Source: Escherichia coli (lineage in GTDB: Bacteria > Pseudomonadota > Gammaproteobacteria > Enterobacterales > Enterobacteriaceae). From it: a stretch of DNA of 64,000 nucleotides. The DNA is taken from assembly GCF_017348835.2 (NCBI RefSeq), contig NZ_CP072315.1; one strand, given 5' to 3'. Position numbers: made by a program. How positions within the stretch are numbered: the first letter of the stretch is position 1; every line of letters begins with the position of its first letter. This document shows, one piece after another, positions 9,001 through 15,000 of the stretch.

Positions 9001-12000
9001 GGAACCTGACCAGGGTCCGCTAGCGGGCGGCCGGAAGGTGAATGCTAGGCATGATCTAACCCTCGGTCTCTGGCGTCGCGACTGCGAAATTTCGCGAGGG
9101 TTTCCGAGAAGGTGATTGCGCTTCGCAGATCTCCAGGCGCGTGGGTGCGGACGTAGTCAGCGCCATTGCCGATCGCGTGAAGTTCCGCCGCAAGGCTCGC
9201 TGGACCCAGATCCTTTACAGGAAGGCCAACGGTGGCGCCCAAGAAGGATTTCCGCGACACCGAGACCAATAGCGGAAGCCCCAACGCCGACTTCAGCTTT
9301 TGAAGGTTCGACAGCACGTGCAGCGATGTTTCCGGTGCGGGGCTCAAGAAAAATCCCATCCCCGGATCGAGGATGAGCCGGTCGGCAGCGACCCCGCTCC
9401 GTCGCAAGGCGGAAACCCGCGCCTCGAAGAACCGCACAATCTCGTCGAGCGCGTCTTCGGGTCGAAGGTGACCGGTGCGGGTGGCGATGCCATCCCGCTG
9501 CGCTGAGTGCATAACCACCAGCCTGCAGTCCGCCTCAGCAATATCGGGATAGAGCGCAGGGTCAGGAAATCCTTGGATATCGTTCAGGTAGCCCACGCCG
9601 CGCTTGAGCGCATAGCGCTGGGTTTCCGGTTGGAAGCTGTCGATTGAAACACGGTGCATCTGATCGGACAGGGCGTCTAAGAGCGGCGCAATACGTCTGA
9701 TCTCATCGGCCGGCGATACAGGCCTCGCGTCCGGATGGCTGGCGGCCGGTCCGACATCCACGACGTCTGATCCGACTCGCAGCATTTCGATCGCCGCGGT
9801 GACAGCGCCGGCGGGGTCTAGCCGCCGGCTCTCATCGAAGAAGGAGTCCTCGGTGAGATTCAGAATGCCGAACACCGTCACCATGGCGTCGGCCTCCGCA
9901 GCGACTTCCACGATGGGGATCGGGCGAGCAAAAAGGCAGCAATTATGAGCCCCATACCTACAAAGCCCCACGCATCAAGCTTTTGCCCATGAAGCAACCA
10001 GGCAATGGCTGTAATTATGACGACGCCGAGTCCCGACCAGACTGCATAAGCAACACCGACAGGGATGGATTTCAGAACCAGAGAAAGAAAATAAAATGCG
10101 ATGCCATAACCGATTATGACAACGGCGGAAGGGGCAAGCTTAGTAAAGCCCTCGCTAGATTTTAATGCGGATGTTGCGATTACTTCGCCAACTATTGCGA
10201 TAACAAGAAAAAGCCAGCCTTTCATGATATATCTCCCAATTTGTGTAGGGCTTATTATGCACGCTTAAAAATAATAAAAGCAGACTTGACCTGATAGTTT
10301 GGCTGTGAGCAATTATGTGCTTAGTGCATCTAACGCCTGAATTAAGCTGCGCCGCGAAGCGGCGTCGGCTTGAATGAACTGTTAGACATCATTGGCGTGG
10401 AGCCGAGCAGACTGGCGGCTTCGTGCTTCACAAAGTAAATGAACGCAGTCAACTGATCAGCGCGTGAGGCCAAGCAATCCATCCCTTGTCCAAGGTAAGC
10501 CTGCTGGGCTTCAAGCAGCACGGGCTGATGTTGGACGGGCAGGCGTTCCATTACCCAGTTGGCAGCTACATCCTTCGGCGCGATCTTGCCGGTTGCTGCG
10601 CTGTACCAAATGCGAGACAAAGTAAGCACTACATTCCGCTCGTCGCCTGCCCAATCCGGTTGTGAGTTCCATAGTTTCAAGGTGTCGGCCAGTGCTTTGA
10701 ATAGATCGCTTTCCGGGACTGAGTTGAAGAAATCTTCCGCGGCCGAACCTGCCAAGGCAAGGCTGTGTTGCCTTGCTTTAGTTAGCAGAATAGCCAGATC
10801 AACATCGGTTGTCGCGGGCTCGAAGATGCCCGCAAGAATGTCCTTGCGCTGCCACTCCCCGAATTGCAGTTCCCGTCTGGCTGGATAACGCCAAGGAACA
10901 ACATCGCCGTACACGACGATGGTAACTTCCAAGGCACGGAGAGCTTCACTTTGGCCGGGAGAAGCGGAAACTTCCAGGAAATCTACGAACAGAGCCTGCC
11001 GCACAGTCTCATCGAGCTGTGCAGTCACAGTAACCAGCAAATCAATATCACTGCATGGCTTCAGGCCACCGTCGAGTGCAGAGCCGTACAAATGCACGGC
11101 CAGCAACGTCGATCCCAGATGATGCTCGATGACGTTGAGTGCCTGTGATAGCTGTACCGAAATCTCGGCGGGCACTGCGTTGCTCATGATGTCTAACTCC
11201 CAATTTGTGTAGGGCTTATTATGCACGCTTAAAAATAATAAAAGCAGACTTGACCTGATAGTTTGGCTGTGAGCAATTATGTGCTTAGTGCATCTAACGC
11301 CGCTAAGCAGCGGCACATTTTGCGTTTTGAGCGCAGCGAAGCAAAATGTGTCCGATGGCTTGGATGGTTAACCCCTTTGCCAGATTTGATAGCGATAATT
11401 TATATTTGAATGAAATTCCTGCTCGAACACCACATTGAACTCTTTGGGGATTTCCGGAAAGAAAACATTGCCCTCTGGCTCGGAATCTATTGTCGAGATA
11501 TGTAGCGTGTCGGCATGGGCGATCAGACTCTTGTAGATCTCTCCACCACCAGAAACAACAACATGGTTCGTAAGAGTCTTTAGCTCCCTCATTGCTGCTT
11601 CTATAGATGGAAACACAACCACATCATCGTTAGTAGCTACCGATCCTGAGCGGCTGACAACTGCATACTTTCTATTTGGGAGAGCCCCCATTGCCTCAAA
11701 TGTTTTACGGCCGACTAAGAGCCATTGATTGTAAGTTATTGCTTTAAAAAGCAGCTGCTCACCTTTAGCGTTCCACGGGATATCCGAGCCGCAGCCAATA
11801 ACCCCATTTCTTGCTTTTGCAGCCATTAGTGATATTTTCACGATACTCCTTTGGGTTAACGCCGCCATAAACGGCGACAGGGTGGCGCGCCTATTGCGCA
11901 TAAAATGGCGAAGCCATGCGCAACAGGCGCGGAATCTCTGGCGTCCGGTTTGATGGCTTTGTTATGCAAAGGACTAGTCTTCAATGACGTGTAAACCACG

Positions 12001-15000
12001 GCGCTTTAAGTCCTCCAACGAATCCAACATTCCCCTTATTAATTCAACAGGATGCCCCTCCCAGTCTTCAACAACGCCAACAATTCTCAAGGGTTCGCAG
12101 GTTCTATAGGACTGTGTTGGATTACCGGGAAATCTTTTGTTCGTAAGATTCGGATCGTCTTCGAACGGTCCTGTTGGCTCAACTATGTATATGTAGCCGC
12201 GACCCTCGAGGCCAGACAGTGACATAGCAAGTTCAGCTCCCCAAACTGCTGGCTCCATCAAGGCTGAAAAGTAGATGTGCTTAAGAATACGACCGTCCTC
12301 GAAATGAGAGATGAACCCTGTGGTTAGCAAGTCACCAATCGCCAAATTGGCTTTGGTTCCATGATAGAACGGTCCTTGCACCTGCTTGTAATTATCATGA
12401 GAGATGGGAATCCAATCTTTTACCATTTTAAGACCCTTAATTGTTGGGATTTGGCTGCATAACGTTTGACATGAGGGGCGGCCAAGGGCGCCAGCCCTTG
12501 GACGTCCCCCTCGATGGAAGGGTTAGGCATCACTGCGTGTTCGCTCGAATGCCTGGCGTGTTTGAACCATGTACACGGCTGGACCATATGGGGTGGTTAC
12601 GGTACCTTGCCTCTCAAACCCCGCTTTCTCGTAGCATCGGATCGCTCGCAAGTTGCTCGGCGACGGGTCCGTTTGGATCTTGGTGACCTCGGGATCATTG
12701 AACAGCAACTCAACCAGAGCTCGAACCAGCTTGGTTCCCAAGCCTTTGCCCAGTTGTGATGCATTCGCCAGTAACTGGTCTATTCCGCGTACTCCTGGAT
12801 CGGTTTCTTCTTCCCACCGTCCGTCCCCGCTTCCAAGAGCAACGTACGACTGGGCATACCCAATCGGCTCTCCATTCAGCATTGCAATGTATGGAGTGAC
12901 GGACTCTTGCGCTAAAACGCTTGGCAAGTACTGTTCCTGTACGTCAGCAAGTGTCGGGCGTGCTTCTTCTCCGCCCCACCACTCGACGATATGAGATCGA
13001 TTTAGCCACTCATAGAGCATCGCAAGGTCATGCTCAGTCATGAGGCGCAGTGTGACGGAATCGTTGCTGTTGGTCACGATGCTGTACTTTGTGATGCCTA
13101 ACTTTGTTTTTGCGTTGCTCATGATGTCTAACTCCCAATTTGTGTAGGGCTTATTATGCACGCTTAAAAATAATAAAAGCAGACTTGACCTGATAGTTTG
13201 GCTGTGAGCAATTATGTGCTTAGTGCATCTAACTTTGTTTTAGGGCGACTGCCCTGCTGCGTAACATCGTTGCTGCTCCATAACATCAAACATCGACCCA
13301 CGGCGTAACGCGCTTGCTGCTTGGATGCCCGAGGCATAGACTGTACAAAAAAACAGTCATAACAAGCCATGAAAACCGCCACTGCGCCGTTACCACCGCT
13401 GCGTTCGGTCAAGGTTCTGGACCAGTTGCGTGAGCGCATACGCTACTTGCATTACAGCTTACGAACCGAACAGGCTTATGTCCACTGGGTTCGTGCCTTC
13501 ATCCGTTTCCACGGTGTGCGTCACCCGGCAACCTTGGGCAGCAGCGAAGTCGAGGCATTTCTGTCCTGGCTGGCGAACGAGCGCAAGGTTTCGGTCTCCA
13601 CGCATCGTCAGGCATTGGCGGCCTTGCTGTTCTTCTACGGCAAGGTGCTGTGCACGGATCTGCCCTGGCTTCAGGAGATCGGAAGACCTCGGCCGTCGCG
13701 GCGCTTGCCGGTGGTGCTGACCCCGGATGAAGTGGTTCGCATCCTCGGTTTTCTGGAAGGCGAGCATCGTTTGTTCGCCCAGCTTCTGTATGGAACGGGC
13801 ATGCGGATCAGTGAGGGTTTGCAACTGCGGGTCAAGGATCTGGATTTCGATCACGGCACGATCATCGTGCGGGAGGGCAAGGGCTCCAAGGATCGGGCCT
13901 TGATGTTACCCGAGAGCTTGGCACCCAGCCTGCGCGAGCAGCTGTCGCGTGCACGGGCATGGTGGCTGAAGGACCAGGCCGAGGGCCGCAGCGGCGTTGC
14001 GCTTCCCGACGCCCTTGAGCGGAAGTATCCGCGCGCCGGGCATTCCTGGCCGTGGTTCTGGGTTTTTGCGCAGCACACGCATTCGACCGATCCACGGAGC
14101 GGTGTCGTGCGTCGCCATCACATGTATGACCAGACCTTTCAGCGCGCCTTCAAACGTGCCGTAGAACAAGCAGGCATCACGAAGCCCGCCACACCGCACA
14201 CCCTCCGCCACTCGTTTGCGACGGCCTTGCTCCGCAGCGGTTACGACATTCGAACCGTGCAGGATCTGCTCGGCCATTCCGACGTCTCTACGACGATGAT
14301 TTACACGCATGTGCTGAAAGTTGGCGGTGCCGGAGTGCGCTCACCGCTTGATGCGCTGCCGCCCCTCACTAGTGAGAGGTAGGGCAGCGCAAGTCAATCC
14401 TGGCGGATTCACTACCCCTGCGCGAAGGCCATCGGTGCCGCATCGAACGGCCGGTTGCGGAAAGTCCTCCCTGCGTCCGCTGATGGCCGGCAGCAGCCCG
14501 TCGTTGCCTGATGGATCCAACCCCTCCGCTGCTATAGTGCAGTCGGCTTCTGACGTTCAGTGCAGCCGTCTTCTGAAAACGACAAACAGCCAGAAAGGCT
14601 GTTACAGGCGATTTGATCTGCAACCTATTGGTTAAATTAATGTATCAAAAACGATGGTTTTTGTGACAGTCTTGAAAAGTCCTGACTTCTCCCGAAAAAT
14701 GACTCCCCTCATGTAACAAAACTCGTTACTGTATCAACATAACAATAACCCCATAACTAATTAGCGAGAAAAGAATGAAAATCGGCTATGCACGTAAATC
14801 GGCACTGTTGCAAATAGTCGGTGGTGATAAACTTATCATCCCCTTTTGCTGATGGAGCTGCACATGAACCCATTCAAAGGCCGGCATTTTCAGCGTGACA
14901 TCATTCTGTGGGCCGTACGCTGGTACTGCAAATACGGCATCAGTTACCGTGAGCTGCAGGAGATGCTGGCTGAACGCGGAGTGAATGTCGATCACTCCAC

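Follow-up and report, generated by a model that had tools for sequence, protein, structure and literature searches.

Copies of the qacE101 leader fused to aac(6')-Ib-cr and aadA16 in a class 1 integron of Escherichia coli, and a candidate route for their origin

A 101-bp part of the 5' untranslated region of qacE, named qacE101, has been described as fused to aac(6')-Ib-cr, aacA29a/b and aadA16, the fused genes being transcribed from the qacE promoter inside it (Fonseca & Vicente 2022, PMC8876359). These authors regard qacE101 as a pseudo-cassette which counterbalances position effects and a weak cassette promoter (Pc), and for its description they cite Poirel 2001, Quiroga 2007, Partridge 2009, Perez-Moreno 2012 and Raherison 2017; the notation 'qacE101-aadA16' is found in PMC5437533. 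A conserved promoter, Pq, has been located within about 100 nt upstream of qacE/qacEdelta1 and was active in lacZ fusions (bioRxiv 10.1101/768630). In this study, we analysed a 64,000-nt stretch of E. coli DNA (contig NZ_CP072315.1, assembly GCF_017348835.2; hereafter the window), the integron of which carries three direct repeats. We report that by direct sequence identity these are copies of qacE101, which makes up the opening 101 bp of the qacE/qacEdelta1 leader, and that two of them are very probably fused pseudo-cassettes, for which a function and an origin are proposed. The repeat feature itself is already known and is nothing unusual in a resistance integron as widespread as this one, whose cassette array is among the commonest in clinical isolates.

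The element in the window is identical to the published pseudo-cassette and shares with it the 101 nt, the sequence of the start of the 3'-conserved segment (3'-CS), the partner genes and the position at the 5' boundary of a cassette; what is added here is a set of candidate intermediates from public plasmids. The array also agrees with In1021 (aac(6')-Ib-cr - arr-3 - dfrA27 - aadA16; PMC5437533) in its four cassettes, their order and the 3'-CS, whereas Pc of the window reads as weak (TGGACA/TAAGCT) against PcH1 in the published table, and the flanks of the window are rich in IS26. Promoters borne on cassettes (cmlA, qacE/qacI, qnrVC1, ereA) likewise free a gene from Pc and from its place in the array; the difference is that here the leader has been transplanted to genes which did not originally own it, and that it stands three times in one array.

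A repeat search of positions 8500-15500 returned one family of three direct copies, at 10212-10334 (89%) and at 11176-11298 and 13111-13233 (100%), and a repeat scan of the whole window found the same family and no fourth copy. Alignment of the copies gave a block of 101 nt which is 100% identical in all three and reads TTAGAT...TTGGGAG on the minus strand (full ends TTAGATGCAC...CAAATTGGGAG); a 51-nt probe had three exact matches in the window, with 0 expected from 100 shuffles. Copy 1 (10233..10333; all copies lie on the minus strand) is native to the 3'-CS, of which it forms the first 101 nt as the qacEdelta1 leader. Copy 2 (11197..11297) is a pseudo-cassette leader, so named from the literature, joined to the front of the aadA16 cassette, and copy 3 (13132..13232) is a second one, directly after attI1 and ahead of aac(6')-Ib-cr. 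The G of the GTTAGAT core stands directly before each copy (10334, 11298 and 13233). With the crossover marked by a slash, the upstream boundaries are dfrA27 attC-G/TTAGAT for copy 2 and attI1 ...AAAG/TTAGAT for copy 3, and downstream of both pseudo-cassette copies the junction is G/TTAGAC, the first base of an aadA cassette. After GGGAG, copy 1 continues with ATATATC-ATG AAA GGC of qacEdelta1, while copies 2 and 3 continue with TTAGACATC-ATG AGC AAC GCA and then diverge; these two copies thus share 21 nt beyond the block (up to and including the ATG and four codons), giving a total shared length of 123 nt. Successive copies start 964 and 1935 bp apart, which are the lengths of the aadA16 composite (964) and of aacA4cr, arr-3 and dfrA27 taken together (770+603+562).

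A first-pass annotation of the window had described three direct repeats of the 3'-CS start recurring ahead of aadA16 and aac(6')-Ib-cr, each adjoining a GTTAGAT crossover, and had named much lower similarity between the copies as the finding that would overturn it. The junctions and the 100% identity over 101 nt bear this description out, with adjustments of a few bases to the intervals: 10233-10337 and 11197-11301 each took in a further GCC, which is the end of two different attC sites, and 13116-13233 included 16 of the 21 extra nt common to copies 2 and 3, the true shared length being 123 nt. The published qacE101 pseudo-cassette had not been recognised in the segment, and the role reported for that element is expression, not instability. 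Copies 2 and 3 behave as a pseudo-cassette should: they are 100% identical to copy 1 over the 101 bp of the qacE/qacEdelta1 start, they begin at a cassette boundary and are fused to the 5' end of another cassette, and they have no attC of their own (z = +0.94 for the bottom-strand DNA fold).

From the published promoter work and the sequence read here, each extra qacE101 copy would provide the gene behind it with Pq and with a ribosome-binding site, GGGAG, at 9 nt from the ATG, so that the transplanted leader would make expression less tied to the weak Pc and to array position. In aadA16 and aacA4cr the context is GGGAG-TTAGACATC-ATG AGC AAC GCA, with GGGAG 9 nt before the ATG. Because ordinary aadA cassettes carry only TTAGACATC between the boundary and the ATG, the leader adds a ribosome-binding site which would otherwise be missing. 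It had been proposed that all three genes are given identical initiation contexts; this holds for aadA16 and aacA4cr and fails for qacEdelta1, which has GGGAG in common with them but a 7-nt instead of a 9-nt spacer and other codons. In the case of aac(6')-Ib-cr, the attached 21 nt would provide the start codon as well. Raherison 2017 reportedly found that the 101-bp fragment has a share in the expression of aac(6')-Ib-cr and sets the length of the protein at 199 aa, and the ATG at 13122, which gives 199 aa, agrees with that length.

The 21 nt common to copies 2 and 3 are best read as the native start of an aadA-type cassette. Immediately behind the attC or attI1 that precedes them, the aadA2, aadA13 and aadA22 cassettes start G/TTAGACATCATGAGG and aadA1 starts G/TTAAACATCATGAGG, and aadA16 aligns with other aadA cassettes from its first base, with the shared start TTAGACATCATGAG right at the boundary. 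In the window these 21 nt (TTAGACATC ATG AGC AAC GCA) occupy 11176..11196 (minus strand) as the first part of the aadA16 cassette proper, and 13111..13131 (minus strand) ahead of aac(6')-Ib-cr, to which they supply the ATG and four codons. Since the 21 nt are an aadA start, the aac(6')-Ib-cr leader can be resolved into qacE101, 21 nt of aadA16, AAAACAAAG from the end of attI1, and the aacA4 cassette (TTAGGC...). The remnant AAAACAAAG lies at 13102..13110 (minus strand), just before the first base of aacA4 (TTAGGC at 13101), and was assigned from its sequence and by comparison with attI1 at 13234-13244, with locus L005 and with the plasmid pK522-MOX.

Candidate intermediates were sought in PLSDB with a 48-nt query in which the aadA16 attC is joined directly to ATATATCATGAAAGG. 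One of the records returned was pAeca2 of Aeromonas caviae (NZ_CP039628.1), which has the order dfrB4, catB3, qacE101, aadA16 cassette, attC-G/ATATATC-qacEdelta1, with a single qacE101; about 27 further records were obtained besides it. At 2540-3560 of pAeca2 a plain aadA16 cassette lies exactly between the GGGAG and the ATATAT of one 3'-CS leader, the junctions being catB3 attC-G/qacE101-G/aadA16 cassette-attC-G/ATATATCATGAAAGG. The product expected of the integrase IntI1 at a secondary site (...TTGGGAG/TTAGAC...aadA16...TTCAGGCG/ATATATCATGAAAGG) was therefore found in pAeca2, and was not found in the window. The arrangement looks like a secondary-site insertion by the integrase and is a candidate ancestral form. 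IntI1 recombination at secondary sites of the GWTMW or GNT type was reportedly described in Francia 1993 and Recchia 1994-95, and we take the G/ATAT of the leader to fit the GWTMW pattern. As in such recombination, the junction falls between the G and AT of GATAT, the first base of TTAGAC is intact and attC-G/ATATATC stands on the other side; what differs is the target, which here is part of the 3'-CS leader of the integron itself. An integrase event is favoured over microhomology at the shared ATCATGA because the complete first base of the cassette has been kept. Moreover, the left part of the target would be mobilisable together with the cassette, since it starts at a bona fide G/TTAGAT crossover.

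Two further plasmids resemble later stages. On pXDL-2 of E. coli (NZ_CP043035.1; 2400-2540) the attC of aac(6')-Il is joined directly to ATATATC-ATG of qacEdelta1, without qacE101, and this leaderless 3'-CS is the structure expected after excision of a qacE101::cassette composite. The integron of pXDL-2 also has a 19-bp duplication in attI1 (ORF-11). On pK522-MOX of Aeromonas hydrophila (NZ_CP118701.1), attI1 is followed by qacE101 and by aadA16::aacA4 in one reading frame, with the fusion junction ATGATGTCTAA/AACAAAG/TTAGGC. When GTGCCC...ATGTCT was removed from this sequence in silico, the attI1-to-aacA4cr leader of the window resulted over 198 nt with one allelic mismatch. The fused gene (3061-4563; also in records H103 and H107) is an aadA16::aac(6')-Ib fusion called 'ant(3'')-Ij/aac(6')-Ib' by AMRFinder and lies behind qacE101; downstream of it are an inversely oriented Txe/YoeB-Phd toxin-antitoxin cassette and then catB3. 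Fused cassettes, as in this example and in ANT(3'')-Ii/AAC(6')-IId, have lost the attC between two cassettes so that one reading frame results. The window differs from them in keeping only the first four upstream codons, which give AAC(6')-Ib-cr its MSNA N-terminus.

The aadA16 allele of pAeca2, of pK522-MOX and of the metagenome contig ERZ724503 NODE-44572 has FFNPVPE and the attC sequence GCGCGGCTT; the window allele carries S where these have the proline and A where they have the G of the attC. The G at that position of the attC is also present in the catB3 attC; this G and the proline (ELFDPVPEQD in aadA1) are presumably typical of aadA1-type sequences. These alleles are weak evidence that the Aeromonas arrangements may be older than that of the window. 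On the metagenome contig, qacE101::aadA16 with the P allele (898-1517) is followed by two unannotated open reading frames (108 and 114 aa), which may be cassettes of unassigned function, and no 3'-CS is present there.

Comparison of these public plasmids suggests a stepwise pathway, which we consider about equally likely to be right or wrong, leading from capture (pAeca2) through a mobilised composite that leaves a leaderless 3'-CS (pXDL-2) and an aadA16-aacA4 fusion (Aeromonas and Vibrio plasmids) to an in-frame deletion yielding the aac(6')-Ib-cr leader. IntI1 would have put a plain aadA16 cassette into the G/ATAT of the qacEdelta1 leader and so have parted qacE101 from ATATATC-qacEdelta1; qacE101 and aadA16 would then have been excised as a 964-bp composite and re-integrated upstream of an intact 3'-CS, giving two copies. 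In a third step aadA16 would have been fused to an attI1-aacA4 junction, and one in-frame deletion of the aadA16 body would have left qacE101, the 21 nt and AAAACAAAG ahead of aacA4, with three copies once that cassette had entered the same array. If so, aac(6')-Ib-cr, the gene that dominates clinically, has its promoter-bearing leader, its Shine-Dalgarno sequence and the opening four codons second-hand from qacE and aadA16. Parts of this pathway may already be contained in Partridge 2009 or Raherison 2017.

A number of points weigh against the proposed origin and function. Only one PLSDB record shows the pAeca2 arrangement, which could instead be derived, IntI1 having deleted a second qacE101 between the aadA16 attC and G/ATAT; such a history would likewise use the secondary site, with the events in the opposite order. 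The fusion-then-deletion route is argued from parsimony, and the endpoints of the deletion in the third step share no microhomology. A scan of genome-collection contigs for qacE101 followed by a base other than A gave 0 matches and so no new partners, one for a context other than qacE101 before ATATATCATGAAAGG gave 0 matches and so no intermediates, and a metagenome scan gave one contig, again with aadA16, and no new partner cassettes. As to expression, a sigma-70 consensus scan of 9800-13500 had no match inside qacE101 at 9/12, and the best candidates in a relaxed scan of qacE101 reached 8/12; with the consensus scan this weak, the claim for Pq comes wholly from the literature.

Other explanations of the leader were considered. 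One is that three genes co-opted a structured RNA with a regulatory role (riboswitch or attenuator), comparable to that of SMR genes under guanidine-riboswitch control; we find this hardly credible and rejected it. In its favour, Rfam family RF02912 (AAC_AAD_leader, 'putative aminoglycoside riboswitch / attI site') matches 13205-13279 on the minus strand with 71.3 bits against a gathering score of 56 and so overlaps the first 28 nt of copy 3. The riboswitch reading of that family is disputed, and the match is essentially the attI1 family, covering attI1, extending 28 nt into copy 3 and having no counterpart at copies 1 and 2. At E <= 10 no Rfam family was found within the 101 nt of qacE101, and the RNA fold of the leader plus start (z = +0.62) is not more stable than that of shuffles. 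It is true that riboswitches control some genes of the SMR family, to which qacE belongs, but the survey that describes these found a promoter and not a riboswitch upstream of qacE/qacEdelta1 (bioRxiv 10.1101/768630). It is also very unlikely, if slightly less so, that qacE101 itself moves as a small cassette, equipped with a recombination site, and inserts independently ahead of other cassettes. Core-like sequences do bound it on both sides (G/TTAGAT ... G/TTAGAC), and it is found before unrelated genes. Against this, it has no attC-like hairpin (z = +0.94, as above), its junction occurs in PLSDB essentially with two partners sharing the same 21-nt aadA16 start, which argues for descent from one event and not for repeated insertion, and in pAeca2 the cassette was inserted into the leader and not the leader into the array. 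The 101-nt unit was accordingly rejected as a genuine gene cassette (open reading frame plus attC), for want of the attC; it would be mobile only within a composite.

The array is widespread. In comparison with other aacA4cr-arr3-dfrA27-aadA16 arrays, the whole of it (a 3511-bp stretch) was 100% identical in at least 40 PLSDB plasmids, from Klebsiella, Escherichia, Enterobacter, Citrobacter and other hosts, and was covered to at least 80% in 344. The qacE101/TTAGAC junction (TTAGACATCATGAGCAACGCA) was present at 2407 places in 1967 plasmids (1967/72,556, about 2.7%), and among the 60 matches listed it always precedes AAC(6')-Ib variants or AadA16.

There remains the view that the repeats matter mainly as substrates of RecA which make the array unstable and give rise to deletion derivatives; we think this possible though unlikely. 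The repeats are perfectly identical over 101-123 bp in direct orientation and could, as a side effect, serve in homologous recombination; Shen & Huang 1986 reportedly put the minimum for RecA-dependent recombination in E. coli at roughly 25-30 bp, which the repeats exceed. By geometry, all four cassettes (2899 bp) would be lost through recombination between copies 3 and 1; aacA4cr, arr-3 and dfrA27 (1935 bp) between copies 3 and 2; and aadA16 (964 bp) between copies 2 and 1. Of the deletions predicted earlier, loss of the whole array is thus feasible and loss of arr-3-dfrA27 alone is impossible by this route. Plasmids with exactly such products exist: attI1/qacE101::aadA16/3'-CS in 7 genuine PLSDB records, for example p15A44, and dfrA27 attC/3'-CS without aadA16 in at least 167. 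However, because the repeats start at the crossover, every product of repeat recombination is base for base that of IntI1 cassette excision, and these variants do not discriminate; they may have arisen through RecA or through IntI1, or their arrays may always have lacked the cassettes in question, and they are not assignable to RecA. The tandem-duplication junction, which would be specific to unequal crossing-over between the repeats, was found in 0 PLSDB records, and a literature search on homologous recombination in this array found nothing specific. The IS26/intI1 context of the single-cassette example, p15A44, differs from that of the window, so that no descent from the window context is claimed for it. 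Furthermore, IS26, present in the window at least eight times at about 820 bp per copy, offers far larger recombination substrates than the 101-123-bp repeats, and hundreds of plasmids carry the full array in a stable, identical form.

The integron which carries the repeats lies on the minus strand, its cassettes being read leftwards from attI1, with intI1 on the plus strand (13369..14382; an open reading frame of 337 aa with R32/H39). It has the makeup of a clinical, sul1-type class 1 integron, with intI1, attI1, Pc, cassettes ended by attC and a 3'-CS of qacEdelta1-sul1, as judged from open reading frames, the annotation of identical plasmids, attC hairpins and Pc hexamers. The attI1 site occupies 13234..13298 (minus strand), with the crossover between 13233 (G) and 13232 (T). 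Pc (13456..13484, minus strand) reads TGGACA-17 nt-TAAGCT directly, presumably the weak variant in the naming of Jove et al. 2010, and the GGG insertion is absent, so that there is no P2. On the minus strand there follow the qacE101::aacA4cr composite cassette (13232..12463, 770 bp, attC about 12463-12528), with the aac(6')-Ib-cr coding sequence at 12523..13122 (199 aa from ATG 13122); the arr-3 cassette (12462..11860, 603 bp, coding sequence 11974..12426) and the dfrA27 cassette (11859..11298, 562 bp, coding sequence 11368..11841 with a GTG start at 11841), both without qacE101; and the qacE101::aadA16 composite cassette (11297..10334, 964 bp, attC 10334-10387), with the aadA16 coding sequence at 10342..11187 (281 aa). 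In the stretch 10342-10393 the aadA16 frame, which has no stop before its own attC, continues across that site (...STPMMSNSSFKPTPLRGAA) and ends at a TAA 8 nt short of the cassette boundary. The 3'-CS runs from 10333, also on the minus strand, with the qacEdelta1 coding sequence at 9878..10225 and sul1 at about 9045-9884. Bottom-strand folds of the attC sites, compared with shuffles, gave z = -3.35 for aadA16, -1.78 for dfrA27 and -4.74 for aacA4cr.

The surroundings are those of a typical IS26-mosaic multiresistance region. The IS26 copies, 99-100% identical and in both orientations, were located at 4739-5558, 7080-7899, 7896-8209 (partial), 14801-15620, 18763-19583, 32682-33502, 37916-38736, 43271-44091 and 47259-48078, and those at 7896-8209 and 14801-15620 flank the integron together with its 3'-CS (qacEdelta1-sul1-GNAT orf5). 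Direct repeats other than IS26, each 100% identical, were observed at 21213-21512 and 25497-25796 (300 nt or more, 4284 bp apart) and at 5558-5694 and 45052-45188 (137 nt, 39.5 kb apart).

With qacE101 already named and reviewed, there is little new in the repeats, and their practical significance has been appreciated in the literature: the element helps to explain how aac(6')-Ib-cr, and aadA16 in the fourth position, are expressed from integrons with a weak Pc, and its fusion also fixes the start codon of AAC(6')-Ib-cr. This study adds, modestly, a corrected list of the cassettes that repeat recombination could delete, and public plasmids resembling the intermediates of leader copying, which would make the secondary-site model directly testable. 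The residual novelty lies in this comparative evidence for leader copying, which may or may not already be published. If the model is true, the GGGAG/ATATAT in every sul1-type integron would be a latent entry point that turns any cassette landing there into a self-promoted one.

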